Virus record (IMG/VR): IMGVR_UViG_3300029825_000006 | Coordinates: 2,646 to 66,645 of that record | From: a virus | Taxonomy: Duplodnaviria > Caudoviricetes | DNA length: 64,000 nt | Strand: one strand, 5' to 3' | In this document: one piece after another, positions 1 to 64,000 of the stretch | Layout: every line of letters starts with the position of its first letter | Position numbering within the stretch: position 1 is the stretch's first letter | Program-made: the position numbers and the translations under genes | Notes under the pieces: model-generated | Told to the model about the DNA's origin: nothing | The model's database searches: none | Seen by the model: the letters and a program-made list of their open reading frames with translations, nothing else

Positions 1-218
1 TTATTATAAGTTTTATTTATAGTTTCTTTTATATCATCTCTAGCATAGTCATCGTAGAAACCCATTTCGACTCTTAGCCCTACGTGCGAATTATTTGTTG
101 ATTTGTTTAATTTACGTTTTTGTCTACGTGTAAGTTTGATGCCTAGATACACTTTTGCAAACTCGGCTGGGTTATTTTTAAAATATGCTATCCATTCAGC
201 CATTGTTTTTTCTTCCAT
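1..218 (-). CDS. Hypothetical protein, runs off the left edge; N-terminus resembles the start of some terminase large subunits
   Basis: ATG at 218 after AAGGA; my translation MEEKTMAEWIAYFKNNPAEFAKVYLGIKLTRRQK..., open to position 1; not in the supplied ORF track. Confidence 0.55.
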   Translation of the reverse strand, partial: MEEKTMAEWIAYFKNNPAEFAKVYLGIKLTRRQKRKLNKSTNNSHVGLRVEMGFYDDYARDDIKETINKTYN

Positions 219-230
219 AACACTTTATCC

Positions 231-503
231 TTATTCAATCTCAATAAAAATACGAGTAAATATTTCTTCTTTATTAAAATTTTCACTATAACAGTCCCAG
301 CCTGTTCTAATTGAAATTACTTCGTTTCTTATATATTTATAAACATCTTTTAATAAAATCTCATCAATGTGTTTATTGTCGACAACCATACCATGACTAG
401 TGCGACTATATTCATGTGAGAATACACTAACATAAGTATCTTTACATAGTTCTAATAATTCGATTAATTGCATTTTCTTTAATCCGTATATCCATCTCGA
501 CAA
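231..503 (-). CDS. Hypothetical protein
   Basis: 90 aa ORF in a tightly packed minus-strand run. Confidence 0.55.
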   Translation of the reverse strand: MSRWIYGLKKMQLIELLELCKDTYVSVFSHEYSRTSHGMVVDNKHIDEILLKDVYKYIRNEVISIRTGWDCYSENFNKEEIFTRIFIEIE

Positions 504-721
504 CCAAATAAAAGTAATCGACCTTTTATGTCATATGTTTCATCTTTATATTCTTTTAATTCTTTTTCATAGTAATTACTACGCCAATAACTGTTATCAG
601 CCTGTATTTCTTCTATTACTTTGTCTTTATCGTCATCTTGTTCTAGCAAAACCAACATAGAGCCAACACTGTCAGCATATGCTCTTAGTTGTCTTGTATA
701 TCTAAAAATTATCTTAGCCAT
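479..721 (-). CDS. Hypothetical protein
   Basis: 80 aa ORF with GAGAGAA upstream, packed run. Confidence 0.6.
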   Translation of the reverse strand: MAKIIFRYTRQLRAYADSVGSMLVLLEQDDDKDKVIEEIQADNSYWRSNYYEKELKEYKDETYDIKGRLLLFGCRDGYTD

Positions 722-876
722 TTTATTTTTTCTCTCTCTTTTTCTCTCGTTATTTTTCTACTTTGTTTCTATCCAGCACAACGTTTGCAAACAAATGCTT
801 TTTTCTTACTATTGTAATAAAGTTTTCCGTTGCATATAGGACAACGAACGTCATATGTATTCATAAATTTCCCCCC

Positions 877-1110
877 TTACTCATAATCAACATTACAACC
901 TAAATAATTTAATATCTGAATTATAAAATCTTGCCCATAATTATCAAAAGTATATGCATATGAATCACCTAAATCACTACCCAATTCGCCATCTGGATAT
1001 ATATACTCTACATATATATTATCATTGTCAACATAGATTCTATATGTTTTTGGATTAGATTTACACTTCTCTAACCAAAACTTGTCTTTTTTGCTAAATT
1101 TAAAAATCAT
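877..1110 (-). CDS. Hypothetical protein
   Basis: 77 aa ORF, AAGGGG SD. Confidence 0.65.
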   Translation of the reverse strand: MIFKFSKKDKFWLEKCKSNPKTYRIYVDNDNIYVEYIYPDGELGSDLGDSYAYTFDNYGQDFIIQILNYLGCNVDYE

Positions 1111-1125
1111 TATTATTCCCCTTTT

Positions 1126-1437
1126 TTAATAATCATCTTCTTGTGAACGAACTCTATATGCAAGTTTTCGTTCGATTACGCTATTGTCATCTTCAGGACT
1201 TCTAAAAGTTAAATTAACCATATGATCATCAGAATAAAAACTTAATCTATTACCTAATTCTCTTTTAGATAAAGAATTGCCATATAACCCACCAACAAAA
1301 TCTTTCAATCCCATAGGAACTGAATTTTTTAAACAAAACACATAATCTTTCCAACTTTCAACTTCGACAACTCTTGATTGAATATCGGTAATTTGACCGT
1401 TTACTTCAATTAAGCTAGTTTCGATAATTGTTACCAT
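1126..1437 (-). CDS. Hypothetical protein
   Basis: 103 aa ORF abutting its neighbours. Confidence 0.65.
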   Translation of the reverse strand: MVTIIETSLIEVNGQITDIQSRVVEVESWKDYVFCLKNSVPMGLKDFVGGLYGNSLSKRELGNRLSFYSDDHMVNLTFRSPEDDNSVIERKLAYRVRSQEDDY

Positions 1438-1438
1438 T

Positions 1439-1657
1439 TTACGTCAACTCTAATCCGTTCCCATTTAATCTAAAGAAATTCTTTTTACTCAATACATTTA
1501 TTTTTCCATCAACTATTAAAGAAACACTATCGTTAAACACTTCAGTAACAGTGCCAACATCCCCGATTTCTAAACACTTGTAATGTTCAGGAATTTCATC
1601 GTGGTTAATTGGGATTATCTCTTTGATTATAACTCTATCCCATAATTTAAAATTCAT
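1439..1657 (-). CDS. Small hypothetical protein, possibly SH3/KOW-like
   Basis: 72 aa; pattern DRVII...IGDVGTVTEV typical of small beta-barrel phage proteins. Confidence 0.55.
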   Translation of the reverse strand: MNFKLWDRVIIKEIIPINHDEIPEHYKCLEIGDVGTVTEVFNDSVSLIVDGKINVLSKKNFFRLNGNGLELT

Positions 1658-1670
1658 TTGTTTCCCATTT

Positions 1671-2180
1671 TCAATATTCCTTTTTAACTCTATCTTGATA
1701 AACCCAAGCGTCTAATCCTTCGCAAGACCAAACAGGTACTAGACAACCACTAGCCCATTTGTAGATTGTCTGAATTTCTATTTCATCCAACGACTCGGAA
1801 TCTCCATAACTGTTTATTTGCTCAACTCTAAATTCGTCAAAAATATTACCGTTTTCTTCATTAAAGCCCGTTCCGTATGATGTATAGATTCTATATAGTT
1901 TATTATTTTTATTGATTAGCGTTATGTAGTCATTTTCTCTAACCAAGTCTTTTGGATCGTCAGAAGCATCAATGATTTGATACGTACTATATAAAGACAA
2001 TTCGTATTCGATTGATATTTCATCAATATATCCATAACGTCTTTTAGTATATGCCAAATAAGGTACATCATCTTCAATATACAATTCTGGTTTATAAATT
2101 CTTCTTTGCGTATCAATAAACTCATTATTAGCAAGTAAAACGTAACGCTTTAATTCTTTAATTTCTTTTTGTTCTCTCAT
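1671..2180 (-). CDS. Hypothetical protein, paralog A of 63563..>64000
   Basis: 169 aa, AAGGAG SD; 79 bp identical to 63922..64000 and near-identical C-terminal codons. Confidence 0.8.
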   Translation of the reverse strand: MREQKEIKELKRYVLLANNEFIDTQRRIYKPELYIEDDVPYLAYTKRRYGYIDEISIEYELSLYSTYQIIDASDDPKDLVRENDYITLINKNNKLYRIYTSYGTGFNEENGNIFDEFRVEQINSYGDSESLDEIEIQTIYKWASGCLVPVWSCEGLDAWVYQDRVKKEY

Positions 2181-2205
2181 TAATTTACTTCTCCTTCGTT
2201 TTCAA

Positions 2206-2463
2206 TTAATACCAACCAATTGCACTATTTTTCAAATGCTTTTTTATCATTCTTCTCAAATCATTTTTATGCCAATCTTCCACAATTAAATTTTGTGCGG
2301 GAACTAAATCCATTAGTTTTCCAATTGAGTGGTCTGATAAATAAAATAAATCAATTTGTTTTGTTACACATATATCGGTTCTTCTATATAATTCTAAATA
2401 AGCGATTCCAACCATGCCATAAATTTGCTTTGTTTTGGTGTTTTGATATATTCCTACTGTCAC
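2206..2463 (-). CDS. Hypothetical protein
   Basis: 85 aa ORF; overlaps the 3' end of 2384..2704. Confidence 0.45.
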   Translation of the reverse strand: MTVGIYQNTKTKQIYGMVGIAYLELYRRTDICVTKQIDLFYLSDHSIGKLMDLVPAQNLIVEDWHKNDLRRMIKKHLKNSAIGWY

Positions 2464-2704
2464 TTATTTGTCCCCTTTTTTTAAGTTCTTCCATAGTCAC
2501 AAGTTCTGGAAGTTTTAAATTTCCTAGATTTAACTTTTCACAAATCTCCAATAAAGATTCTTTTCTTCTTTGTTTAGATTCTTCATCTCTACAAATGATA
2601 CAAACTTTTTCGTCAAAATAATTAACACGCACAAGCATTTCAATATTTTGCGCTAGTGTTTTCCCAAATCTTCTTCCATAATCAATGAACATTTTTCTTA
2701 TCAC
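2384..2704 (-). CDS. Small protein with a P-loop-like motif
   Basis: 106 aa, GAGAGG SD, motif GRRFGKT near the N-terminus. Confidence 0.55.
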   Translation of the reverse strand: MIRKMFIDYGRRFGKTLAQNIEMLVRVNYFDEKVCIICRDEESKQRRKESLLEICEKLNLGNLKLPELVTMEELKKRGQISDSRNISKHQNKANLWHGWNRLFRII

Positions 2705-2739
2705 CCTCTCTACAATAGTTCGTTATGACATATAATAGT

Positions 2740-3231
2740 TTATTGATTTTTTGGTGTTTTATTTTCATTTATATATTTAATAGTTGAGAAGCTGCCTACC
2801 TTTGCTTTGTCCCCAAATATTAATACACACATTGGCAACCACAAACCTCTTTCTTCATTGTTAAAATTTACTTCTCCTATAATAAACCTAACTTCAGCGT
2901 CCTTAATAACTTCTTCCCACCATTTTGTGTTTGACCTAACTGGAACCAAACACACTTTTGTACCACTGAAACTTAGAGAGTCCTTATGAGCCTTCTTGAC
3001 CCATTTAGATAAAGCTCTTGAAAAAGGGGGGTTCATCCAGCAGTTACCTTCCCAGTCTTGTTTTAAACCGTCTTGTTCTTCTGTGAAGTATTTATCTAGT
3101 TTATGGTTCTCTTCATTAGCACAAACATCTATGTCTAAATCAAACTCGTCTTTAAGAGGCGTGAATAAAGACAGTGGTGTGCTGTATTCAACTTTTTTAC
3201 TATTAAAATTGTTTATTTTGCCTATTCCCAT
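2740..3231 (-). CDS. Phage DNA N6-adenine methyltransferase (Dam-like, PF05869 type)
   Basis: YSTP..LF, DIDVCA, CWMNPPFS, LVPVRSNTKWW motifs. Confidence 0.85.
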   Translation of the reverse strand: MGIGKINNFNSKKVEYSTPLSLFTPLKDEFDLDIDVCANEENHKLDKYFTEEQDGLKQDWEGNCWMNPPFSRALSKWVKKAHKDSLSFSGTKVCLVPVRSNTKWWEEVIKDAEVRFIIGEVNFNNEERGLWLPMCVLIFGDKAKVGSFSTIKYINENKTPKNQ

Positions 3232-3744
3232 TTATTCTCTCCCTTTATCAACAATAATTTTTGTCTCACCTTTGTATCCACGCTTGAAGTGTATCGCACA
3301 AGCAGGAAAGCCAAAAGGGAAACCACACTTGCTTGCTCCTACAATCCATATAAATGGGACACCACCATAATTATCCACTTTTCTAATTCTCCCCATACTA
3401 GACACCACTTTTGATAAAGGGACAAGATAAACAATATTGTCTGCTATCTTAAAACTGTGTTCCAGTACTTCGTCAAAAATTGAGTAAGGAGGGTTAGAAA
3501 TTATCCAATCCACTTTTTCATTATAGTCAAAGAAATCTTTATCTTCGTCTATTTCACACCAACACTTGTCTAAATTGCTTGGATATTGGTCGTAGAACGC
3601 ACCATCACCTTTGAAGGGGTCTAATATCTTCCCTTCTATCTCAAACTGGTCTATGATTGATTTTGCTATGTGTAAAGGTGTTCTAATTTTATCATTAGGG
3701 TTTTGTACGTTTCTCCCCTTACCAAATGTTTCATGTATTGCCAT
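3232..3744 (-). CDS. DNA adenine methyltransferase (second, unrelated type)
   Basis: RTP..IA, ILDPFKGDGAF SAM motif, WIISNPPYS catalytic motif. Confidence 0.85.
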   Translation of the reverse strand: MAIHETFGKGRNVQNPNDKIRTPLHIAKSIIDQFEIEGKILDPFKGDGAFYDQYPSNLDKCWCEIDEDKDFFDYNEKVDWIISNPPYSIFDEVLEHSFKIADNIVYLVPLSKVVSSMGRIRKVDNYGGVPFIWIVGASKCGFPFGFPACAIHFKRGYKGETKIIVDKGRE

Positions 3745-4515
3745 TTACTCTCTCCCCTTATGATTGTCAATTCTCTCTTTTGCTATATTAAAATAATTCT
3801 CATAAACCCTATTAATCCATTCTTTAAATTCTGTTTGCGACATTGAGCTTTTAGCAGTGTTACAAAATTTACAACATGGAACTATATTATTTTTTAAATA
3901 CCCTTTTAAATTATCAATTCTGTCTATACCATTATAGTAAACAATCGTGTCGCTCGTTTTTCTGCCGTTTTCCTTAGTATTAAATCTGTCTGTAGCATAA
4001 TTGCTATTTTCTAAACTTTGAACGTGAATTGTTTCTACTACATCTATAAATGATTTATTAATTTTTTCAACAAATTTTTCAGCATAATGCAATCTATTAT
4101 GATACGGTTGATTTCGAATATCTTCACCGTCATAAAATAAACAATCAAATACTGCAAATTTTGCTTCATTTTCTTTTTGCAATTCAATTGCTCTTTCTGG
4201 AAGAGATTTTGTAATTCCAGCAATTGTTGACCAATCTTTTGAATATATTTCTCCATCTAATACTGTATATCCATAGTTTGGAACTGAAAATTGAAAAGTT
4301 GGCAAACTATCTTGTAATTCTCTAAATTCATTTGTCTTCTTTGAAATTCTTCGAGATGTGCAATATGTTTTATCATTATCAAAATGTAATAACATTCTTT
4401 CGCCATCAAATTTTGGTTGAAGATACATAAAATTTGTATCAAATAATCTATCAATATTTTTTTGATTTACATACTCAAGATGAGTTGCATGGTTTGGTTT
4501 TAATTGTTGTTTCAT
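3745..4515 (-). CDS. ATP-dependent DNA ligase N-terminal half (motifs I, III, IIIa) fused to an HNH endonuclease C-terminal fragment
   Basis: QPKFDGER, VLDGEIY, FAVFDCLFYDG; no motif IV/V or OB domain; after about aa 169 the sequence switches to YNGIDRIDNLKGY...VPCCKFCNTAK. Confidence 0.85.
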   Translation of the reverse strand: MKQQLKPNHATHLEYVNQKNIDRLFDTNFMYLQPKFDGERMLLHFDNDKTYCTSRRISKKTNEFRELQDSLPTFQFSVPNYGYTVLDGEIYSKDWSTIAGITKSLPERAIELQKENEAKFAVFDCLFYDGEDIRNQPYHNRLHYAEKFVEKINKSFIDVVETIHVQSLENSNYATDRFNTKENGRKTSDTIVYYNGIDRIDNLKGYLKNNIVPCCKFCNTAKSSMSQTEFKEWINRVYENYFNIAKERIDNHKGRE

Positions 4516-4581
4516 AAATATTTGTCTCCTCTATATATTATATTTATATTCATTTATTTTTTAAATATACATAGTTTTTTA

Positions 4582-4764
4582 TTAAATTTTTTCTAATCTA
4601 TCAAGAGCAACTTTTCCAAGAGTTGTTTCAACATAAAGCGAATAATTCATTCCTCGACCAACTTTTTTAATTTTACTTTTAACAATTGCTATTTGATTAT
4701 TTCTTCGATTAAGAATATCGTTTTTAATTATAATTTTGTCACCAATATTTAAATTAAATTCCAT
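4582..4764 (-). CDS. Hypothetical protein
   Basis: 60 aa, AAGGAG SD. Confidence 0.6.
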   Translation of the reverse strand: MEFNLNIGDKIIIKNDILNRRNNQIAIVKSKIKKVGRGMNYSLYVETTLGKVALDRLEKI

Positions 4765-4824
4765 ATTTTGTCTCCTTAAATGAATTACGGTTTTGAAGGT
4801 TAACCGTAAACCTTTATTAATATT

Positions 4825-5124
4825 TTAACGAACTTTATAAAGTATTAATCGTCCTGCGCATTCAATTTCATATTCGTAACCATCTTTTTTTAATACAACT
4901 TCTAATTTTTCATAAAATTTATCGTTTAAACCAAGATACTCAGCATCACCACAATCATAACCTAATTCTTCATTATTATCAATTAAATACAAAATATCAT
5001 CTTGTTGTTTTAATTTTAAATTATATGGACTTTCAATATGAAGTTCTTTATCATCTTTATCAAGAGGAGGGTATGTAATACCCTTCATCTCCTCTTTAAT
5101 TAATTTCTTAACATTTTCTAACAT
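4825..5124 (-). CDS. Hypothetical protein
   Basis: 99 aa, AAGGAG SD, stop/start overlap with the upstream gene. Confidence 0.65.
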   Translation of the reverse strand: MLENVKKLIKEEMKGITYPPLDKDDKELHIESPYNLKLKQQDDILYLIDNNEELGYDCGDAEYLGLNDKFYEKLEVVLKKDGYEYEIECAGRLILYKVR

Positions 5125-5309
5125 TATTTATCTCCTTTATTCGTTTGCATAATTCTTGCTGGAATAACATAAGTAATATTACATTTATCACAGCATTCAC
5201 CATCTTCTTTAACAGGATAAGGATTGTTTCCAAATTCCTTGTTATCACCCCAACCTAAAGAGTGTTCTCCGCAAATACAACATTTGAAACCTTCAATTTC
5301 TTTTTTCAT
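5124..5309 (-). CDS. Small Zn-finger-like protein
   Basis: CCIC...GNNPYPV...CCDKCN; first gene after a promoter. Confidence 0.7.
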   Translation of the reverse strand: MKKEIEGFKCCICGEHSLGWGDNKEFGNNPYPVKEDGECCDKCNITYVIPARIMQTNKGDK

Positions 5310-5344
5310 AAATAATATCCTCCTTATTAATTATTTATATATCT

Positions 5345-5400
5345 ATTATATCACATAACTTATTAAATGTAAATAGTTTTTTTCAATTATTTTAATTATA
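5345..5400 (-). promoter_or_regulatory. Early sigma-A-type promoter (repeat family P)
   Basis: TTTACA-17-TATAAT with TG extension and A-tract UP element; near-identical copies at 17703, 26787, 27134, 34140 and 34544. Confidence 0.8.
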
Positions 5401-5467
5401 TTTATATTATTTACTAAATTTTATCATTTATACATTAAAACTATATAAATAAAGTCCCAGAAGTAAC

Positions 5468-5527
5468 TTCTGAGAACTTTATCTTTTAATTGATTAATAT
5501 TCCTTAATAAGATTTTTATAGCATTCT
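5468..5527. repeat. Intergenic hairpin element family F1, copy A
   Basis: TTCTGAGAACTTTATCTTTTAATTGATTAATATTCCTTAATAAGATTTTT; differs from 62754..62813 at about 2 positions. Confidence 0.85.
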
Positions 5528-5532
5528 TAGAA

Positions 5533-7536
5533 TTAAGATATACCATAAAATCTTTGAGCAACTCTTAAACATGCGACAAAACCATCTCTTTCAGTACTAT
5601 ATTTCATTTCATCAGTTTTAGTTTTATTAAATTTAAACATTTCAATATCAGACCTTGTTCTAGAACAACTTTTTAATACTTTTACTTTTTTTCTTGAAAA
5701 CGCTAAATTTAAATTTGTAACACTTTTATCAAAATCTTCAATTATATATTTTTCGATAATAACTTGTTTTGAATAAATTGATTGCATCGCATCAGAATTA
5801 CTGCAATCGATAAACATTTTTTCTTTTGGCTTAAATTCTTTAAGTTTTTTAAGACCTTCGTCAATTGATGCTTTAAATTCAATTTCGTCTAAACAAATTA
5901 TTGTATCAGTACTATAATCTATAGCGATTGTAGCAACTTTCCATTTGTCACCATCTTTGTTAAAGAATGTAGTTTTTTGTAATGGGGTTTTCTCATTAAT
6001 TATCTCAATAATATTTTCATTATTAAATGAACGTGCATAAACAGAATATCGTTTATCCATAAATGTAAATAATACATTCTGAGAAAAAGCATCAACGATG
6101 TCATTGTGTTCAACAAATGGGAAGTTTAATAATCTTTGTATTAGATTTTCTAATGCTTCAGAGAGTTGATATTCTTGAATAAGTCTATTGTAATCGTCTG
6201 CGACAAATACTACATTTTTAATAACCATATATAATGAGGCTGACTCAAGTCTTTGCATTTTAGATTGAGTTCCTGGTTGATATGCGTACATACCTGAAAT
6301 TTCATCTTGTAATTGTTGAAGTATTGGAGAACCATTTGCTTTATCTTCAATAACTTGTACTATTCCAGGATATGCTTCAAATAATGCTCTAACATATTCT
6401 ACAGACTTTACAAAAGCCATTCTTTTTTCTAAACAATCTTTTATATATAATGTTGAACCAACTCTATACGATAATACTGAGCCTAAATAGTCAGAAGTTT
6501 CTTTATCTTTAACTGGGAAGTCGTGTGACCCAAAAACCATATCTGCGTCATCTATTGATGGAACTTCATTGATAGGTTTAATAATTATCATATTTTCTTT
6601 GATTACTGTTTTATCTGTTGCAATTGCATTTTGCAAATATTGAGTTTCAAAGATAGACTCTCCTACTTGTGAACGAATTGAGTCATAATTACCAAATCTT
6701 TCAGGCCATAAAAAGTCTCCTTCTGCAAAAGTGTAAATTTGTCCACTAATAGGAAATACTAAATGCGTTTTCTTTTTAAATATTGCAGGTAAGGTCACAA
6801 ACACATATTGCTGAGCCAATTTTTTTTCATTCATAATATGCCCAGTAATATCATTTGGAGCAAGTCTCTGTTGAATATTCATAATAAAACATTTACTCGG
6901 ATCGTTAATTCTAGATGGCATTGTATTTTGATAATATGCCCACGCATTTTCCATTTCTGCTTGGTCTTTACGCGCTGTTTCAGCATTTGTTAAGTCATCA
7001 TTTATAATTATGTCGCCGCCATAACCGGTAAATGCATTTCTATTTAATGAATATAATTCTCCTCCTCTAGAGTCTTTAAGAAAAGTATTACTATTTGATA
7101 CAAGTGAAATATCTGTAAATAACTCTTTAAACTTTTCAGAATTAATTATTGCTTGTCTTTTTGAATTCATTTGTCCTGCAAGTCCTGCAGTATGTGAAAT
7201 TGATACTGCTTTTATTGGATACGATAGCCATAACCATACTGGACCTAACACATTAAATCCCATACTTTTAGAATGTCTTGGAGGAACATTTAAACATAGA
7301 TTTTGTTTTCCTTGTCTGACATCTATTATTTCGCCATCTAACATTGATGTATCAATTTCAACTTCGTCATACCCAACCCATTGTTTGCACATGTATTGAA
7401 AAACTTCGCAATAATATTGAACTATAATTCCATCTACAAATTTCGTAGGGTCTGCAGTTTCCCAGAAATCTTTAACAAAATCATAAAATGACTTTTTGTA
7501 TAATTGTCTATATAATATTTTTTCTAATTCTGTCAT
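5533..7536 (-). CDS. terL: Terminase large subunit with a C-terminal extension
   Basis: NVPPRHSKS Walker A, IIINDDL Walker B, IQQRL coupling motif, GSHDF and HNDIVDAFSQ nuclease motifs. Confidence 0.93.
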   Translation of the reverse strand: MTELEKILYRQLYKKSFYDFVKDFWETADPTKFVDGIIVQYYCEVFQYMCKQWVGYDEVEIDTSMLDGEIIDVRQGKQNLCLNVPPRHSKSMGFNVLGPVWLWLSYPIKAVSISHTAGLAGQMNSKRQAIINSEKFKELFTDISLVSNSNTFLKDSRGGELYSLNRNAFTGYGGDIIINDDLTNAETARKDQAEMENAWAYYQNTMPSRINDPSKCFIMNIQQRLAPNDITGHIMNEKKLAQQYVFVTLPAIFKKKTHLVFPISGQIYTFAEGDFLWPERFGNYDSIRSQVGESIFETQYLQNAIATDKTVIKENMIIIKPINEVPSIDDADMVFGSHDFPVKDKETSDYLGSVLSYRVGSTLYIKDCLEKRMAFVKSVEYVRALFEAYPGIVQVIEDKANGSPILQQLQDEISGMYAYQPGTQSKMQRLESASLYMVIKNVVFVADDYNRLIQEYQLSEALENLIQRLLNFPFVEHNDIVDAFSQNVLFTFMDKRYSVYARSFNNENIIEIINEKTPLQKTTFFNKDGDKWKVATIAIDYSTDTIICLDEIEFKASIDEGLKKLKEFKPKEKMFIDCSNSDAMQSIYSKQVIIEKYIIEDFDKSVTNLNLAFSRKKVKVLKSCSRTRSDIEMFKFNKTKTDEMKYSTERDGFVACLRVAQRFYGIS

Positions 7537-7563
7537 ACACCCTCCTTTTCAATTGTAATATCA

Positions 7564-7641
7564 AATTTGACCTCAGATATATTTTTAATATGAATTAATA
7601 TTTATATATTAATCAGACTAAAGTTTATCTGAGGTCAAATT
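7564..7641. repeat. Intergenic hairpin element family F2
   Basis: Perfect 16-bp inverted repeat AATTTGACCTCAGATA/TATCTGAGGTCAAATT around an AT-rich core; TATAAATA on the minus strand pointing at terL. Confidence 0.85.
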
Positions 7642-7647
7642 ATTTTA

Positions 7648-8058
7648 TTACGCTCCTAATGCTGATAAAAGATATGTTACAATAATATCTGTAGCATTTG
7701 AAATTTTTGTATTTACTTCATCTTTACGATTTTCAAAAACATCAATTATCGCATATAAATATGATAGTCTTGTTTCTAAATTTTTCTTTTGATTATCGTA
7801 ATCTTTATTTTGCTCTTCGAGTGCATTGATAAAGCCCTCAAAATTACTTTCAACGTTCTCACTTGTATTTCTAATTATTTGAATTAAGTCATTTTGCTGT
7901 ACTTTTACATTAGCCATATTTTCTAATGCATTTTCCATCTCATCTCGCATTTCATAAATTCTATTAATCTTACTTTCAAATTCTTTATTTTCCATTTTCT
8001 TACCTTCCTTTTCTAAATGGTGTTGTTCTTTAAATTTTATAATCGGACAAATTTTCAT
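7648..8058 (-). CDS. Coiled-coil hypothetical protein (likely start at 7995)
   Basis: Heptad-rich sequence; SD AAGGAAGG precedes the ATG at 7995. Confidence 0.65.
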   Translation of the reverse strand: MKICPIIKFKEQHHLEKEGKKMENKEFESKINRIYEMRDEMENALENMANVKVQQNDLIQIIRNTSENVESNFEGFINALEEQNKDYDNQKKNLETRLSYLYAIIDVFENRKDEVNTKISNATDIIVTYLLSALGA

Positions 8059-8885
8059 AATTCTCCTTTCTTTAAAGCCTCTATTAATTTAATTTTACTC
8101 ATTGTTATAATTGTATGATTTCGATAATCATATACTTTATATGAAGATTTTGTCAAATCTTTTTCATCTAAAATTGGTTCTGGAGAGCATCTACAATTTG
8201 GAAATTCTCCCGCGTTACCCCACATTGTATCTAAATTTGGTTTTTCATTATCTTTATTTCTCCAAAATACTACGACATCATACATTTCTCGATGTGATTT
8301 TCTTGTTCGAATATCATTTGAAGACAGCCAAATATATGCTACACTTCCTAAATCTCTTGCACGATTTTCCATAATTGCAGTTTGTAATTTTGCAGTTTCA
8401 GTTCTAGCAATTAATTTTGAATTTTTATGACCTTGCTTTCTTAGTTCTTTTTCAAAAGAACCTCGACCAATGCTACCTTCTAAAACTTGTTCTCGTAATG
8501 TTAGAATATATTTTTGTTCATATACTTTTAATACTTTTTCAGGAATAGATTTTATCATTTTAAAGTTATGCTCAGTTGCTTTTTTTAATTGCTCTAATTG
8601 AAATTCACTAAATGATTTAACATATACTTTATAACGTCTTGCTTTAGCAGCATCAAAATATTTTCTCCAAATTCCACGTTCATGAGAAAGTCCTTTTTTT
8701 GCTAATTCTTTAGAAAACTTTTTAGCAAATCTTTCATATGCATCAGTTTCGCCTAGTCTTAAAATAGTATTTTTAATTTTATCTTCATTCATTGTTTCAA
8801 ATCTTCGAATTGTTGATGTCGAAAATACTTTCTTAAAAACTTCTTTATAAATTGCTTCGATTTGTCTTTCTATTTGTTTACTCAT
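8055..8885 (-). CDS. MuF / SPP1 gp7-like minor head protein
   Basis: LIARTETAK, YIWLSSNDIRTRKSH, PNCRC motifs. Confidence 0.92.
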   Translation of the reverse strand: MSKQIERQIEAIYKEVFKKVFSTSTIRRFETMNEDKIKNTILRLGETDAYERFAKKFSKELAKKGLSHERGIWRKYFDAAKARRYKVYVKSFSEFQLEQLKKATEHNFKMIKSIPEKVLKVYEQKYILTLREQVLEGSIGRGSFEKELRKQGHKNSKLIARTETAKLQTAIMENRARDLGSVAYIWLSSNDIRTRKSHREMYDVVVFWRNKDNEKPNLDTMWGNAGEFPNCRCSPEPILDEKDLTKSSYKVYDYRNHTIITMSKIKLIEALKKGEL

Positions 8886-10642
8886 ATTTTTAATTCCTTA
8901 ATTTTAATAATATTAACATATGTTTTAATTTTATCATATATTTTGTCAATATAAAACTGATAATCGATTTTAGTAATCAAATCATCTTTTACACTATTTG
9001 ACAATATTTCATTATTATATACGAATATATTATCAGGTAAGTTTGAAACTTTAGAACGTTTCGTTTTACCCTCAGGATTGCATTTATATAACATTCTTTT
9101 TATTTTATCGTTCGATGCAAAGACACGATTTACAGATTGAACTTCCTCAATGTTAGAATATCCTTCGTAATCTTCTTGAAGTTCTACATATTTAAATGTA
9201 CCCTTTTTTGCGATATATTGAAATAGTTTTAAGTCACTTTTATTTTCAAAGACTGTTTCTTCAGGCATTTTATCTAACATAAAATAATTTACTATAGCAT
9301 CGCCAATTATAAAAGCATCTTTACTTTGTGGGAAAATGTATCTACGAGTATAATGCGCAATGTCACCCCCTAAAGCAAATATTTTATCGTCTTGCTTATA
9401 CATATAACAATTTACATCTCTTTGAACAATATCAGAAATATGTTCAATTTTTAAATTAAATCCTGTTCGATTTTGCCATTCGTTAACAATTTCAACAATT
9501 TCTTGTTCACTGATACCTTCATTAGGGACAACGATAATACCATCAGTATTTGATTGTACTAATTCTATTTTTCCTTCTAATTTTTCTAATAAGTCTACTA
9601 AAAATATTTGACCAGTCATTGTTATAAGTCTTCCATGATATGGGTCGTAAAACCCCAAATGTTCATTTAATGACGCACCAAAAACTGCCAATAAAATTGT
9701 CTTTAATACATTTCTTTTTCGAGGGTTAATTTTTTTAAGTCGTAATTGTTCATAATACATCTCTTCGTATACTTTTTTATATTCATCAGGAATTGAACGA
9801 GGTAACAATCCGTATTTAATCATTATTAAATTATAATAACCACTAACGTCAAAATATAATGCGTTTTTTGCTTTATATATTTTTCTTGCACCATGAATAC
9901 CGCCAACACCAATAATATGTTCCACACCGCAAATAGTTGTTGTTAATTTTGCATTTTCAGATAGAAATTTTTCTTCAAGATAAAATTCTAGCACTTCTTT
10001 ATTTTTAATAATTAAATTATCGTAATGTTTAGGTTTTACAACCCAACTACTAATTCCATCAATTCTTTCAGCATGTAATACTTTTTCAGCAGTCATTGCT
10101 TCAGTATAACTCAATGCTTTCATATCAAGTTTAAATTCAGCAATTGTTTCTAATTGTAAGATAAATGCGTCTTTTACTTTAATAAAATTATCTAACGTTT
10201 GTTCTAAGTCGTCAAAGTTATATAATTCTACGATTTCTTTTTCTTCATTAGTTAATCGTCTTTGTAAATTAAATGATACTTTTGACTCAGAGATTTGTTT
10301 ACCATCAAGTGCTTCTGTAACTTTTAACGAAAAGAAACCAGCGGCTGACATTATATCATAATAGTGTAAATGTATATTTAAATATTGTCTTTTATCTCGT
10401 ATAATTATGTCATCATTAATTTTTTTCGGATCGTTATCTTTTAAACATGCTTGCAAAATAAAATTATCATAATGTTCATTATTCCAGCCTATCCATATGC
10501 TTTCTTTATTTTGTAAATAGAACTTTTTAATTTCGTCTATTGACCAAGTTTGAAATAATGTAATATCATCGTTTTCGATAATTAACGCGCCTAATAAAGT
10601 ATCATATAAAAATACTTCAAAGTCAAATATTATTATTTTCAT
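8882..10642 (-). CDS. Family-B-type DNA polymerase with 3'-5' exonuclease
   Basis: Exo motifs DFEV, WNNEHYD, YNFDD; polymerase motifs YFDVSGYY, KTILLAVFG, SNTDG. Confidence 0.88.
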   Translation of the reverse strand: MKIIIFDFEVFLYDTLLGALIIENDDITLFQTWSIDEIKKFYLQNKESIWIGWNNEHYDNFILQACLKDNDPKKINDDIIIRDKRQYLNIHLHYYDIMSAAGFFSLKVTEALDGKQISESKVSFNLQRRLTNEEKEIVELYNFDDLEQTLDNFIKVKDAFILQLETIAEFKLDMKALSYTEAMTAEKVLHAERIDGISSWVVKPKHYDNLIIKNKEVLEFYLEEKFLSENAKLTTTICGVEHIIGVGGIHGARKIYKAKNALYFDVSGYYNLIMIKYGLLPRSIPDEYKKVYEEMYYEQLRLKKINPRKRNVLKTILLAVFGASLNEHLGFYDPYHGRLITMTGQIFLVDLLEKLEGKIELVQSNTDGIIVVPNEGISEQEIVEIVNEWQNRTGFNLKIEHISDIVQRDVNCYMYKQDDKIFALGGDIAHYTRRYIFPQSKDAFIIGDAIVNYFMLDKMPEETVFENKSDLKLFQYIAKKGTFKYVELQEDYEGYSNIEEVQSVNRVFASNDKIKRMLYKCNPEGKTKRSKVSNLPDNIFVYNNEILSNSVKDDLITKIDYQFYIDKIYDKIKTYVNIIKIKELKI

Positions 10643-11070
10643 TTTCCAGTACTTCCTAAACCACGATTACCCCTTTCAGTGTTTGGTAATTCTTGAACAA
10701 TATCAAGATATGGATTTAATATTGAATAAACTACTAGACTGCAAACTCTTTGACCTGCTTTAATTTCAATTTTATTCTTTGAGCAATTTGTTATAATTAA
10801 ATGAATTTCTCCAGTATAATCTGGGTCGATTATTGAAGTTTGAATTAATAACCCTTTTTCAGCAATAGAACTCCTAGGAACTAACATACCTGCATGACCT
10901 TCAGGTATTGCTACTCCAATTTCTAGACCGATTGTCTTAGTTTCTAGTATTTCTAATTCTAAATCACAAGGCATAAAAATATCTAAACCACTATCAGGTA
11001 AATGCGATTTTTTTGGTAAAATCGTACTTTCTTTAAACAATCTAATTTTCATATTTTCCCCCCTAAACAT
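10639..11070 (-). CDS. dut: Trimeric dUTPase (likely start at 11052)
   Basis: DSGLD, PRSS, IIDPDYTGEI, RGNRGLGSTG motifs. Confidence 0.95.
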   Translation of the reverse strand: MFRGENMKIRLFKESTILPKKSHLPDSGLDIFMPCDLELEILETKTIGLEIGVAIPEGHAGMLVPRSSIAEKGLLIQTSIIDPDYTGEIHLIITNCSKNKIEIKAGQRVCSLVVYSILNPYLDIVQELPNTERGNRGLGSTGK

Positions 11071-11962
11071 TTAATAATACTTTAATATTTGCATCAACAA
11101 TTTTATCAATTGTATTGTAATATTTTCTTAAAAAATTCCATTGTTTTATTTGATTTTCCGTATAATCAATATTATCAATGTCTTTGATAAAACCAGTAAT
11201 ATCATCTGAATATTTAAAATATTTTCGCGTATTACTTCCATGAATTATAATCGTTCCACAAGGAATTGCTTCATGAACTATTGTTTCCATATGGTCAAAT
11301 GGTTGAATTAAATTTATGTCTAAATATAAAAATTGACATTTTTTAATTTCGTTATATAATTCATCATTAGTTTTACCTATATGAATATCGTATGAATTAT
11401 CTAAATTATATGTTTCATCCAATTCTTTAGAAGTTAAAATTACTTTTTTCCAATGTTTAAATTTTTCTTGAGATGTATAATTTATAAATTCGTTTAAACC
11501 TTTACTTTTTCTACCAACAAAACAAATACTATTTTTATCTTTATCTTTGAAATTAACCCAATGTTTGTTATGAATTTCATAATAATTTGAGCCTGCTTGT
11601 TCATAAGCAATTACTTTAAATTTTTTCAAAAATAATTCTTTATATAAATCACTATCTTTCGAAATAACAATATGTAAATCGATTAATTCTAATAAACCAT
11701 CGATATTAAAAATTGCATTGTTTTGATATATTCGTCTATCACAGTAATGATGTATAAATACTATTTTTTTACCATTATTTTTATAACTAGACCATTCGTT
11801 TTTAATTTCTTTATTAAATGGTATTTGTGCATAAACTAAAACATCAGCATCTTCTTTTTCTGTAAAAAGATTTCTTTTTTTGACTTCATTCAATAAGAAA
11901 CCCTGCATCTTTTGTTGCCCACTAATTTTGTCGCAAGACATATCAACGTATAACTTTTTCAT
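11063..11962 (-). CDS. GT-B-fold glycosyltransferase (GT4-like)
   Basis: IVFIHH, ICFVGRKSKG, ELYNEIKKCQFLY, ETIVHEAIPCGTIII resemble the GT4 E-X7-E donor-binding region. Confidence 0.7.
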   Translation of the reverse strand: MKKLYVDMSCDKISGQQKMQGFLLNEVKKRNLFTEKEDADVLVYAQIPFNKEIKNEWSSYKNNGKKIVFIHHYCDRRIYQNNAIFNIDGLLELIDLHIVISKDSDLYKELFLKKFKVIAYEQAGSNYYEIHNKHWVNFKDKDKNSICFVGRKSKGLNEFINYTSQEKFKHWKKVILTSKELDETYNLDNSYDIHIGKTNDELYNEIKKCQFLYLDINLIQPFDHMETIVHEAIPCGTIIIHGSNTRKYFKYSDDITGFIKDIDNIDYTENQIKQWNFLRKYYNTIDKIVDANIKVLLNV

Positions 11963-11977
11963 ATTTACCTCGTATAA

Positions 11978-12056
11978 AATTTAACTTTAGGTTAATAATA
12001 TTAATATTAATAATTATATATAAATAAATATTAAAAAATACATCTGAAGTTAAATT
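11978..12056. repeat. Degenerate F2 hairpin element
   Basis: AATTTAACTTTAG ... CTGAAGTTAAATT, 79 bp span, core TATATAAATA. Confidence 0.6.
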
Positions 12057-12061
12057 AATAA

Positions 12062-12520
12062 TTAATTATTTATAATATTCATATATCTTATAATATCTTT
12101 AGCAATATTATAAGGTGTTATTTTAGAAGTATTATAATTTAAAATTTTTAAATTATGTTCAGTTATTAAAATTTTCTCAGCATTTTCAAAAGCCATTATA
12201 TTTTCGTCATAATTAATCTTTGGCTCATTTGTATATTTACATCTAATATTCCAATCTTCTTCATCAACTGCTAAAAGAACATTTACAATGTTTTTTTGTT
12301 GAGATACTTCATAAGAATAATCTCTTTTATATAAATTTGAATATGCTATCATTGATATTATTCCTCTAGAATATACTAAATATCTTTTTTCAGATAATTC
12401 TGAAATATAGAACGCGATTAAATCTTTTCCAGTTTTATCAATACCATCTAAAACAATAGTATAATATTTTAATTTTTTATCCATTATAATACCTCTATTT
12501 AATATATTTAAAAATTTCAA
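12062..12520 (-). CDS. dNMP/thymidylate-kinase-like P-loop protein (likely start at 12484)
   Basis: IVLDGIDKTGKD P-loop; YSRGIIS at the position of the DR motif. Confidence 0.7.
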   Translation of the reverse strand: MKFLNILNRGIIMDKKLKYYTIVLDGIDKTGKDLIAFYISELSEKRYLVYSRGIISMIAYSNLYKRDYSYEVSQQKNIVNVLLAVDEEDWNIRCKYTNEPKINYDENIMAFENAEKILITEHNLKILNYNTSKITPYNIAKDIIRYMNIINN

Positions 12521-13043
12521 TTAATGAATTAACTCTAATACCATTAAATTCATAATCAATATTTTCAGAATTTATTACATTTATATATAAAGCGTCACCA
12601 TTTATTCTTTTAATATTATTTAAATTATCGACGTTGTCTTCAACAACTAAATCTACATGACCAAATTTTTCAAAAATTGTAAAGTCTTTTTTAGCAGAAC
12701 AATATATATAATCATAAATTAATCTATTTTTCTTAAGCCAATTAATAGTTCTTTCTAATTGATTATTTTTAAATAAATCTCTTGAAGTAATTATATATAT
12801 TAAATATCCGGTTTGCTTTAACAAATTTAATAAAATTACTGCATTTTCTTTAACGTTTGCATCATTTTTAAATTCTGAATTAATATAATTTTCTTTCATC
12901 TTTCGATAATCAATAAATGATAGTGCACTTTTAATTTCATGTAAAGTTTTAAAATTTGTTTTTAAAGAATAATTGCAATAATCAATAAGAGTTTGTGGAT
13001 AATTGTTTAAAACACCATCAATATCAATTATTGCTTTTTTCAT
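12495..13043 (-). CDS. HAD-family 5'(3')-deoxyribonucleotidase-like protein
   Basis: IDIDGVL motif I, IITSR motif II, K, VEDN motif IV. Confidence 0.85.
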   Translation of the reverse strand: MKKAIIDIDGVLNNYPQTLIDYCNYSLKTNFKTLHEIKSALSFIDYRKMKENYINSEFKNDANVKENAVILLNLLKQTGYLIYIITSRDLFKNNQLERTINWLKKNRLIYDYIYCSAKKDFTIFEKFGHVDLVVEDNVDNLNNIKRINGDALYINVINSENIDYEFNGIRVNSLIEIFKYIK

Positions 13044-26858: not shown

Positions 26859-27095
26859 TTAACACCAAGTATTCCAACAATTTGTTAAAAAGAAAATTAC
26901 TTCAAAAATTGAGTTAACTTTTTCATAAGTTCCACCACCAACAGGACAATAAATAGATTGACCATTTCTATCAATATAAGTATTCCAATTTAATTCAGTT
27001 TTATTCAATTCACATTCGAATTGAGATGTGTTTTGAAATGGGCTTTTTGAAATGGATGCATAACCATTTTTAAATGTTACATAAAATTTTTTCAT
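26859..27095 (-). CDS. Hypothetical early protein
   Basis: 78 aa, AGGAG SD, flanked by two family P promoters. Confidence 0.65.
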   Translation of the reverse strand: MKKFYVTFKNGYASISKSPFQNTSQFECELNKTELNWNTYIDRNGQSIYCPVGGGTYEKVNSIFEVIFFLTNCWNTWC

Positions 27096-27133
27096 AAATA
27101 TTTGTCTCCTTATTTATATTTATTTATAATACT

Positions 27134-30139: not shown

Positions 30140-30383
30140 ATTCTATACCAATAGCATTATTTAGTGCTTCACCTTCTGTTTCAGCAATAATGTCAACATA
30201 ATATTCACATGTTATTTTTACATTATATAATTTTTTCTTATTCATATAATTTTCTCCTTTATATTTTATATTTATCTTATCAACGTTTGTCGTTGTACTT
30301 GAAGCAGTATCATGACAATAACAACATAGTTCTGGTATGAATGAACTTATAAACTTTCCGCACTTATAACAAACATTGTTCAT
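30045..30383 (-). CDS. Hypothetical protein
   Basis: 112 aa; CxxC...CxxC N-terminus; possible internal start after GGAG at about 30245. Confidence 0.55.
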   Translation of the reverse strand: MNNVCYKCGKFISSFIPELCCYCHDTASSTTTNVDKINIKYKGENYMNKKKLYNVKITCEYYVDIIAETEGEALNNAIGIEYDSSDFQNFKYEISNVDELSEDDIKEHKDNE

Positions 30384-33817: not shown

Positions 33818-34099
33818 TTATTTATTTTTTAATTCATAAGCGATATCGATAATTTCACCATCTTCACTAATTAAACTATAACAAGTTGCATCTAAATTAG
33901 AAGTTTGATTAATTATCGATGTATGAATTTCACCCGCCCACTCATAAGTTTCACCTTTATAAGTTCCAAATACTTCTTTTGCGTCATTTAAATTGGTAAA
34001 TTCATGTGTTGTAACCATAGATGAAGTGGCTGAAATTCCTTTTGATATTGAATACGTAATCTCATGTTTTGTTATAATATATTTAATTCTTTCATTCAT
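33818..34099 (-). CDS. Hypothetical early protein
   Basis: 93 aa, AAGGAG SD after a family P promoter. Confidence 0.65.
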   Translation of the reverse strand: MNERIKYIITKHEITYSISKGISATSSMVTTHEFTNLNDAKEVFGTYKGETYEWAGEIHTSIINQTSNLDATCYSLISEDGEIIDIAYELKNK

Positions 34100-34139
34100 A
34101 AATAATATTCTCCTTTATATTTATTTATTTTATAATTCT

Positions 34140-62664: not shown

Positions 62665-62753
62665 GAATAGAGAATATTATTTTGGCCGTAATCGTTTGAC
62701 CCAGTTTAACTTGCACCCATACATAAAGTGTAATAGCAAGCACCAAAACCAAT

Positions 62754-62813
62754 TTCTGAGAACTTTATCTTTTTATTGATTAATATTCCTTAATAAGATT
62801 TTTCTAGCATTCT
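62754..62813. repeat. F1 hairpin element, copy D
   Basis: Near-identical to 5468..5527. Confidence 0.85.
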
Positions 62814-62992
62814 TTAATAATTAATTCATCTAATTCAGTTTCATTTAAAAATATAATTTCACCAATATCTTCTAGAAATAAACCATATTTATATTTATAA
62901 TAACAATTAATTTCGAATATTTTTGCTTTATGCATAATACCATTTATTGCAATATTAAGTATATCATATAATTTATATTTCGTATTATTCAT
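62804..62992 (-). CDS. Hypothetical protein
   Basis: 62 aa, coupled to the ligase C-half stop. Confidence 0.55.
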   Translation of the reverse strand: MNNTKYKLYDILNIAINGIMHKAKIFEINCYYKYKYGLFLEDIGEIIFLNETELDELIIKEC

Positions 62993-63549
62993 TATTCTTC
63001 ATCTCGGAAAATTGTTTCTTTCGTACACATTGTGTAATCTTTATCATTTCGAATTCTAACAATTACTGGATGTCTTAATGAACGTTTTGTAATTTCTTGA
63101 CATTTAACTTCAATAACAGTATTTTTCATTTCATTCCAATTTTCAAACCAATTTTTTCTTTCTTCATCGGTTCCAGGAGCAACATTTGACATATGAATAA
63201 AAGTATCTTTTTCTTCGTCATAATATCCAATTTTTAAAGCACCAATTGTGTTAGAATATTTGCCGTTTCCAATTTCATAATCATATACGACAACGTCTAC
63301 TGTTTCAAATTTTTTAATTTTTAAAGTTGCAAATTTATCTTCATATTTTAAATGCGAACCTTTAAGAACTGAACCTTCAAAACCTTCTTCGATTAAATGT
63401 TCTGTAACTTCTTTTGCTTTTTCAATCTTATTCACCAGTCTATTCAAAACATCTATGGCTTCTTGCATTTTTTCTTTATTTCTATGTTGCCATATCTCGT
63501 TCATTATAGCGTATTCTCTAATAAAATTAATCGCTTGTCGTGGTGTCAT
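62992..63549 (-). CDS. ATP-dependent DNA ligase C-terminal half (motifs IV, V and OB domain) with a foreign 43-aa leader
   Basis: EGFEGSVLK, LKIKK, TVDVVV..YEIGNGKY...IGAL, VAPG, EVKCQE...SLRHP...RIRNDKD; own SD GAGAGG and ATG. Confidence 0.85.
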   Translation of the reverse strand: MTPRQAINFIREYAIMNEIWQHRNKEKMQEAIDVLNRLVNKIEKAKEVTEHLIEEGFEGSVLKGSHLKYEDKFATLKIKKFETVDVVVYDYEIGNGKYSNTIGALKIGYYDEEKDTFIHMSNVAPGTDEERKNWFENWNEMKNTVIEVKCQEITKRSLRHPVIVRIRNDKDYTMCTKETIFRDEE

Positions 63550-63562
63550 TAATTTTCCTCTC

Positions 63563-64000
63563 TTAATATTCCTTTTTAACCCTATCTTGATAAACCCAAG
63601 CGTTTAATCCTTCACAAGACCAAACAGGAACAAGGTAGTTACCAGCCCATTTATAAATTGTTTGGATTTTTATACTTTGCAGTTTGTGGTAGTTGTCATA
63701 GTAGTCTACGGCACATAGCCCATAGTAAAAGCTATTAAAAACTTTACACAAATCCCTATCTCTTTCGCCTTCTACTGATATATAATCACCTTCTCTTAAT
63801 AAATCTTTTGGGTCATCAGAAGTATCAGTAATTTTATAAGTGCTGTAAAATGACAGTTCGGTCATTTCTGCAAGTTTCGAGTTTGTATATCCCCCACGTA
63901 TATCATATCTTTTATAATATACCAAATAAGGTACATCATCTTCAATATACAATTCTGGTTTATAAATTCTTCTTTGCGTATCAATAAACTCATTATTAGC
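63563..64000 (-). CDS. Hypothetical protein, paralog B of 1671..2180 (5' end beyond the window)
   Basis: Open frame to the right edge; shares YIEDDVPYL, SDDPKDL and QTIYKWA...VPVWSCEGL.AWVYQDRVKKEY. Confidence 0.8.
   Translation of the reverse strand, partial: ANNEFIDTQRRIYKPELYIEDDVPYLVYYKRYDIRGGYTNSKLAEMTELSFYSTYKITDTSDDPKDLLREGDYISVEGERDRDLCKVFNSFYYGLCAVDYYDNYHKLQSIKIQTIYKWAGNYLVPVWSCEGLNAWVYQDRVKKEY

Follow-up and report, generated by a model that had tools for sequence, protein, structure and literature searches.

A DNA ligase gene in pieces, divided by a fragment of a mobile HNH-methyltransferase cassette, in an uncultivated tailed phage

The stretch of DNA analysed here (64,000 nucleotides, hereafter the window) corresponds to bases 2646-66645 of one 66,645-bp IMG/VR scaffold, which contains a 10-N gap, is classed as linear and is given as 100% complete by CheckV. 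Two open reading frames (ORFs) on its minus strand, both of them open and translatable with a ribosome-binding site (RBS) and an ATG each, encode complementary portions of an ATP-dependent DNA ligase. The first (3745-4515, 256 aa) aligns through residues 26-173 with positions 18-169 of the 204 positions of the Pfam domain DNA_ligase_A_M (E 4.7e-17). Its ligase part, codons 1-169 (4009..4515), has the RBS GAGGAG, matches in both Pfam and PHROGs, and motifs I (KFDGER), III and IIIa, and it runs in frame into a tail of 87 codons plus stop (3745..4008) with homology to HNH endonucleases (PHROG 1035 and 3322); orf60 lies nearby at 4582-4764. The second ORF (62992-63549, 185 aa), next to orf62 (62804-62992), aligns through residues 34-74 with positions 156-196 of the same domain and additionally matches DNA_ligase_A_C and OB. 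Here the ligase part, codons 44-185 (62992..63420), holds motifs IV (EGSVLK), V (LKIKK) and VI as well as the OB domain, and is fused in frame to a foreign leader of 43 codons (63421..63549) that supplies the RBS GAGAGG and the ATG. PHROG 114 is divided between the two halves in the same way as the Pfam domain, and both ORF coordinates and motif placement, as given in the initial annotation of this DNA, were borne out by Pfam, by PHROG 114 and by a profile of relatives.

This profile HMM was derived from 43 intact relatives of 299-324 aa that had been retrieved with the C-half. When N(1-169) and C(44-185) were joined, the resulting protein of 311 aa aligned to the profile without gaps over nodes 5-311 with 474 bits, a value close to the sum of the scores of the N part (231 bits, nodes 5-172) and the C part (238 bits) taken singly. 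The ligase is truly divided at E169/K44 (...VQSLE169 | K44AKEV...), with no codon lost or duplicated; the joined ligase of 169+142 residues that had been proposed agrees with this gapless alignment, and the breakpoint letters quoted in its support, GAAAATAGCAA at 4011-4001 and GAAAAAGCAA at 63423-63414, are those of the DNA. The signature of the rejoined ligase would be ...CAAAGTTTAGAAAAAGCAAAAGAAG..., and that of an intact or rejoined allele in reads CAAAGTTTAGAAAAAGCAAAAG. Comparison with 28 relatives showed that all family-invariant positions are present in the two halves, including motif I (K35-F-D-G-E-R40), which is invariant in the 28, and in the C-half there are motif IV (E58-G-S-V-L-K63), motif V (K77/K79) and motif VI (R159-H-P...D169-K170). 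We take the motif names to apply by analogy to the enzymes of the Chlorella virus and T7 type. Like those minimal ligases, composed of a nucleotidyltransferase and an OB domain, the joined 311-aa protein has motifs I, III, IIIa, IV, V and VI with PF01068 and PF04679, whereas here they are carried not by a single polypeptide but by two ORFs, the cut lying between motifs IIIa and IV. No second ligase was found in the phage, where PF01068 matched the two halves alone and PF01653 matched nothing, and our literature search found no report of a split DNA ligase in a phage.

The scaffold starts inside an RNR gene and ends inside a gene that we call paralog B. Its first and last bases do not overlap, and closure at the scaffold ends was rejected; closure is internal instead, since 79 nt at 2054..2132 are identical to 63922-64000 and close the contig as a circle of 61,868 bp, which bears on the question of circularity that had been raised as a point to check. 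On this circle path the ligase halves are 2,456 bp apart. The distance of 59 kb between them on the scaffold is unreal, because the scaffold was opened within the insert, and the two ORFs, neither distant nor separated by unrelated genes, form one ligase locus. In intact relatives, whose ligases of 315-323 aa are encoded between TerL-side ORFs and the tube and sheath genes on contigs of 57-58 kb, the order is dUTPase, polymerase, Mu F, TerL, small ORFs, ligase, in some arrangements a further ORF, tube (-) and sheath (-), and the window gives the same order once its end is joined to position 2133. The split gene is the only ligase gene of the phage and occupies the ligase locus of the relatives, between terminase-side small ORFs and convergent tube and sheath genes.

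Contig break points in other assemblies were used as indirect evidence of adjacency, with run data taken as Logan contigs from one DNA run at about 5x, the only run found to contain the stretch; no RNA run was found. In two other assemblies the ligase halves are linked directly. Contig L016 of assembly ERZ27283042 is 100% identical to window 4873-3898 and crosses the ligase|HNH join by 119 nt. It overlaps contig L002, which begins at window 4016, by exactly k = 119. Over its positions 1-1963, L002 is identical to window 4016-2054, and over 1885-12893 it matches 64000-52993 at 99.99%, so that this contig passes unbroken from 4016 to 2054 and then from 63921 to 52993, in the order HNH remnant, methyltransferase, Dam, ORFs, paralog B, leader/ligase C, orf62, tube and sheath. 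The left join is also present in a third assembly, in contig L003, which ends at 2054. On this reading the genome is that of an uncultivated tailed phage of fermentation metagenomes, about 62 kb long and probably circular or circularly permuted. Its TerL is at most 26% identical to that of any cultured phage; a megablast search of window 1-9000 against phages gave no match, and neither did a search of viral contigs for loci related to the ligase N part.

Window 1-2053 on the minus strand, with paralog A and the genes downstream of it, is left outside the circle. Together with scaffold 1-2645 it appears to be a spur of 4.8 kb that entered through the repeat and continues into contigs L011 and L013, whose genes on this path (path A) comprise a Thg1-like gene, RNR, a second dUTPase and further ORFs, and do not resemble anything else in the window. 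Paralog A itself matched no Pfam or PHROGs family and no phage. All assemblies break at or near the point where the paths to paralogs A and B diverge, L003 ending at 2054 and L013 starting 55 nt before, and a single-nucleotide difference of L011 at window 2133 travels with path A. The spur is probably part of a co-occurring element that shares the cassette, and does not belong to the ligase locus. The 10-N gap (scaffold 2311-2320) falls in the Thg1-like gene, and both L011 and L013 read across it. The RNR of L013 (4510-7767, followed by the second dUTPase) is a protein of 1,085 aa with an intein and a LAGLIDADG endonuclease domain, another gene of DNA metabolism invaded by a mobile element in the same community. 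For annotators, a scaffold listed as linear and 100% complete may conceal a circle plus a spur, and may thereby fake a separation of 59 kb.

To judge from its genes, the insert is a 2,456-bp (~2.5-kb) fragment of a mobile endonuclease-methyltransferase cassette. Following the HNH tail on the minus strand are a putative DNA methyltransferase of 170 aa (3232..3744; PHROG 799, E 7.8e-29), a predicted Dam-type N6-adenine methyltransferase of 163 aa (2740..3231; Pfam PF05869, E 4.9e-27), two ORFs of 106 and 85 aa without a family match (2206..2704) and, as the last full gene of the insert, paralog B, of 161 aa on the circle path (63563..64000, with its first codons at 2133-2180). Nearly the whole insert codes for protein, and no gap between its genes is longer than about 35 nt. 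The paralogs form a family of 161-169 aa (1671-2180; 63563-64000) with identical 5' ends and remainders that are 77-82% identical.

Over residues 167-241, the N-half ORF shares 73% identity with the C-terminal 75 aa of an HNH protein (174 aa) of a Lactococcus 936-group phage. Full-length members of this HNH family have 189-224 aa and the motif ...PCxYCG[LI]xxSNYATDR..., and the tail begins just past CG, without about the first 115 aa. It is a remnant, because it has neither the N-terminal domain nor the first of the zinc-site Cys pairs (CxxC). As with the free-standing HNH genes of the Lactococcus 936 group (e.g., PhiM1127 gp03, NC_049368), methyltransferases are found nearby; those genes, however, are of full length (174-190 aa) and intergenic, whereas here the gene is truncated and fused. 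The methyltransferase beside the Lactococcus HNH was considered as a homolog of that of the cassette and proved not to be homologous. No near-identical HNH was found in the protein database, where the best full-length match was 76% and no partial product occurred. By the HMM of relatives the 43-codon leader is not ligase-like, and a search of 1.84 billion representative proteins gave no homolog of it. Two derivations of the leader were rejected, one from the missing HNH N-terminus by reciprocal exchange, since the two show no likeness, and one from a diverged duplicate of ligase residues 157-169, for which the gain in HMM score was almost nil.

At the left join, ligase and HNH gene have in common the 10-nt microhomology GTTTAGAAAA (4007..4016, minus strand), and contig L002 starts at 4016. 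The initial annotation had pointed to a microhomology of GAAAA at both breakpoints, which is real; taken alone it is weak, with 460 copies in the window when both strands are counted, and on the left side the shared sequence is longer, namely GTTTAGAAAA, which has 2 copies by the same count. Window 1-4900 was compared with the Logan contigs of X1, a fermentation-metagenome run from 2024. One of these contigs is identical to window 3901-4016 and then enters a full-length HNH gene (...TINKPCYYCG|LENSNY), the two diverging exactly at 4016/4017, where the window reads A-GTTTAGAAAA-T and X1 reads G-GTTTAGAAAA-T. There is thus another context in which the same cassette follows an HNH gene that is complete. 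Ligase N had no coverage in X1, 4101-4900 being a hole that is not proof of absence, and the run contains 0.63 of the sampled words, approximately the share expected from positions 1-4016 alone. Its cassette also branches at 2741/2743 and 3220/3247, and mosaic paralog variants occur in it, with loose ends at 1918 and 2091.

Since the C-half resumes as ...GAAAA-AGCAAAAG, the ancestral ligase would have read AGTTTAGAAAAAGCA, sharing the 10-mer GTTTAGAAAA with the HNH gene. The letters on either side of the break identify it as a microhomology join into the middle of the HNH gene, and not as a clean insertion by a homing endonuclease. In ERZ27283042 the cassette of L002 is identical to the window copy across all 1,963 nt, and L011, on path A, equals this block across the shared 191 nt except for the one difference at window 2133; as L002 is unbroken, the path-A copy presumably matches the whole block of 1,963 nt. 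The cassette copy of X1 shows about 10 differences from the window. The insertion event is young, because donor and insert copies are near-identical, and the earlier suggestion of a recent insertion is in this respect, its recency, well founded.

[quoted passage not shown] The Aeh1 NrdA protein is split by mobE between two active-site beta-strands and is fully active, its insertion-derived tails being essential (PMC3045599). In the ligase as in Aeh1 nrdA, a phage gene of DNA metabolism has been cut, within the fold of the active site, by DNA that goes with an HNH-family endonuclease, no codon has been lost or gained, as the gapless alignment over 311 aa indicates, and both pieces are separately translatable, each with a foreign tail made by the insertion. 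Unlike in Aeh1, the endonuclease is not a complete ORF: only its last 87 codons are left, fused to the upstream ligase half, and it cannot be the current agent of mobility. The insert is moreover a multi-gene fragment of 2.5 kb with two methyltransferase genes that was joined through microhomology, and whereas the Aeh1 RNR is proven to be active, the ligase pieces are known from sequence and model. A further comparison is offered by the fractured genes outlined by Dassa et al. (2009, PMC2677866), in which split inteins have a homing endonuclease between their halves. In the features outlined there, these resemble the present locus in consisting of two halves in metagenomic phage-like DNA with an endonuclease-bearing insert between them, and differ from it in that neither ligase junction has intein blocks, which makes trans-splicing impossible. 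We conclude that the ligase is a real gene in pieces, which probably arose when part of a mobile HNH-methyltransferase cassette was captured.

The most likely reading of this locus is a young, tolerated disruption of the ligase, to which we assign a probability of about 0.55. In this reading, 2,456 bp copied from an HNH-methyltransferase cassette interrupt the ligase gene between motifs IIIa and IV, and a co-occurring phage-like element has the cassette behind a complete HNH gene. The left join formed through the 10-nt ligase/HNH microhomology; at the right join the ligase resumes in frame at K44 behind a 43-codon piece of an unknown cassette gene, which brought along its RBS and ATG. The data show the split, the adjacency of the halves, the source of the insert and the left junction, whereas the way of capture and the functional state are inferred. 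This may have occurred during co-infection, either by one-step capture of a donor fragment of 2.46 kb at a break or by a template switch out of the ligase and back at the same ligase site. The outcome would be one transcription unit encoding two fragments, 169 aa with the 87-aa HNH remnant and the 43-aa leader with 142 aa. Co-transcription of both halves is plausible, given that promoter-like sites precede the unit and that no terminator-like site was found within the insert. Ligase function would have been recently lost or crippled, a state that the phage may tolerate while the host ligase seals nicks. Some phage ligases, such as that of T7, are dispensable when host ligase is sufficient. Against a dead ligase are the in-frame start with a good RBS that the C-half has kept, the intactness of every family-invariant residue, a divergence of the halves from relatives that does not exceed that among intact ligases, the occurrence of the same split allele in at least two assemblies from different samples and the retention of the gene in all relatives.

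Alternatively, two polypeptides made from one operon may reassemble the nucleotidyltransferase fold by beta-sheet complementation, possibly helped by their foreign tails, a reading that we hold to be a real though minority prospect. In its more specific form, a natural split ATP-dependent ligase in which the HNH remnant and the 43-aa leader serve as assembly tails, the proposal is rather unlikely and draws on the analogy with Aeh1 NrdA (PMC3045599). A working two-piece ligase is favoured by the in-frame leader with RBS and ATG, by conservation at this locus across relatives in a phage without any other ligase, by the retention of all invariant and catalytic residues and by the lack of excess divergence. 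Identity to relatives is 50-52% for ligase N and 61-64% for ligase C, compared with 60% between two intact ligases and 58-66% for TerL, and the divergence of the halves from relatives is no greater than that between intact ligases. The modelled complex of N(1-169) and C(44-185) obtained a score of 0.89, a mark reached in 58 of 80 solved complexes and in 2 of 110 mismatched pairs, with 0.00 for the best of 3 controls, and this pass reflects likeness to single-chain ligases rather than binding of fragments, because single-chain structures have been solved. The model runs agreed in at least 98% of contacts with a partner pLDDT of at least 85, and the predicted pairing is between residues 55-63 of the C-half, the motif IV strand, and residues 27-38 of the N-half, the motif I strand. 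Intact motifs and normal divergence, however, carry no weight on function, because the event is too young for either of them to reflect selection, and an in-frame right join is expected by chance in 1 of 3 cases. The cut furthermore lies within the catalytic domain and not between domains, and appendages of 87 and 43 aa have been added. Enzymes cut at random within a catalytic domain and burdened with two appendages are usually inactive.

The extent of the interruption would be different if the scaffold order were correct and a single genome of at least 80 kb carried a ligase interrupted by about 20 kb or more, in the order cassette copy 1, paralog A, Thg1-like gene, RNR, dUTPase and, further on, full HNH, cassette copy 2, paralog B and ligase C, the 62-kb circle then being a deletion derivative or an assembler shortcut. 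The scaffold indeed leads from ligase N through the cassette to paralog A and not to paralog B, paralogs and paths A and B occurred together in 4 of the 4 samples examined, the sample in which ligase N is found also has the branch at 4016, and the path-A genes are not redundant with the window. We nevertheless consider this arrangement improbable. Relatives with homologous capsid and terminase genes have contigs of 54-58 kb, and a genome about 40% bigger than theirs (at least 80 kb) would probably not be packaged easily with homologous head genes; nor would two identical direct repeats of 2 kb be stable. The cassette, the full HNH gene and path A are all present in run X1, yet its share of sampled words is about that given by positions 1-4016 alone, and L013 goes 14 kb beyond paralog A, through convergent genes, without a return to the ligase. 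That the split exists in no real phage and is an artefact of assembly is very unlikely. The scaffold does have a gap of N and ends in a repeat, and the apparent split of a relative's ligase into ORFs of 143 and 193 aa (L008:387-1483) is false, its break being a run of N, for which reason the 193-aa 'C-half' (P0046) was rejected as a scaffold artefact. Here, by contrast, both joins lie inside contigs, the left in three assemblies (k = 119-127) and the right in two, and a false left join is ruled out because a de Bruijn assembler at k = 119-127 cannot join on 10 nt. Least probable of all, to the point of being scarcely credible, is that a 311-aa ligase is restored through excision of the block from the DNA or through its removal by splicing of RNA or protein. 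The precise in-frame complementarity of the halves and the 5-nt direct repeat GAAAA at both edges speak for it. An Rfam search of L002:1-3200 at E <= 1 detected no group I or group II intron, and nothing else except a chance sRNA, and there is no non-coding room for a ribozyme. The junctions (...SLE|NSNY and ...NKIE|KAKE) have neither the C, S or A start of an intein nor its HN followed by C, S or T at the C-junction, and the tail is HNH by homology. No recombinase was found among the cassette ORFs in Pfam or PHROGs, as an excisable element of the skin/sigK type would lead one to expect, and its only repeat would be the common GAAAA. No rejoined or uninterrupted, near-identical allele was present in 5.8 billion proteins, where the best match was 67% to the C-half. 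The idea of an excisable block that switches the ligase on, put forward at first, is not supported.

If the ligase is inactive, as under the preferred reading of a tolerated disruption, the locus would be a dated snapshot of a phage whose ligase is being lost to a cassette captured from a neighbour through 10 nt of microhomology, and would be informative on how phages that infect the same cell recombine illegitimately. Were the halves active, a minimal DNA ligase would be available with a split site made by nature, and the Aeh1 RNR, the sole known example of a fragmented enzyme rescued by tails from a mobile element, would have an independent counterpart; the locus would then also be a second test case of how phages neutralise the fragmentation of genes by mobile DNA.

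Two kinds of repeated element were also observed. The unit that holds both halves is flanked by two copies, 90% alike, of a hairpin element (5452-5528 and 62738-62814), and a terminator-like stem (5475-5455, minus strand) and a strong promoter-like site (5373-5345, minus strand) were also detected. A repeat of 42 nt, which includes an RBS and an AT-rich promoter-like region, is located at 4507-4548, 27087-27128, 30235-30276 and 34091-34132; it precedes ligase N and three other genes and may be a shared regulatory cassette.
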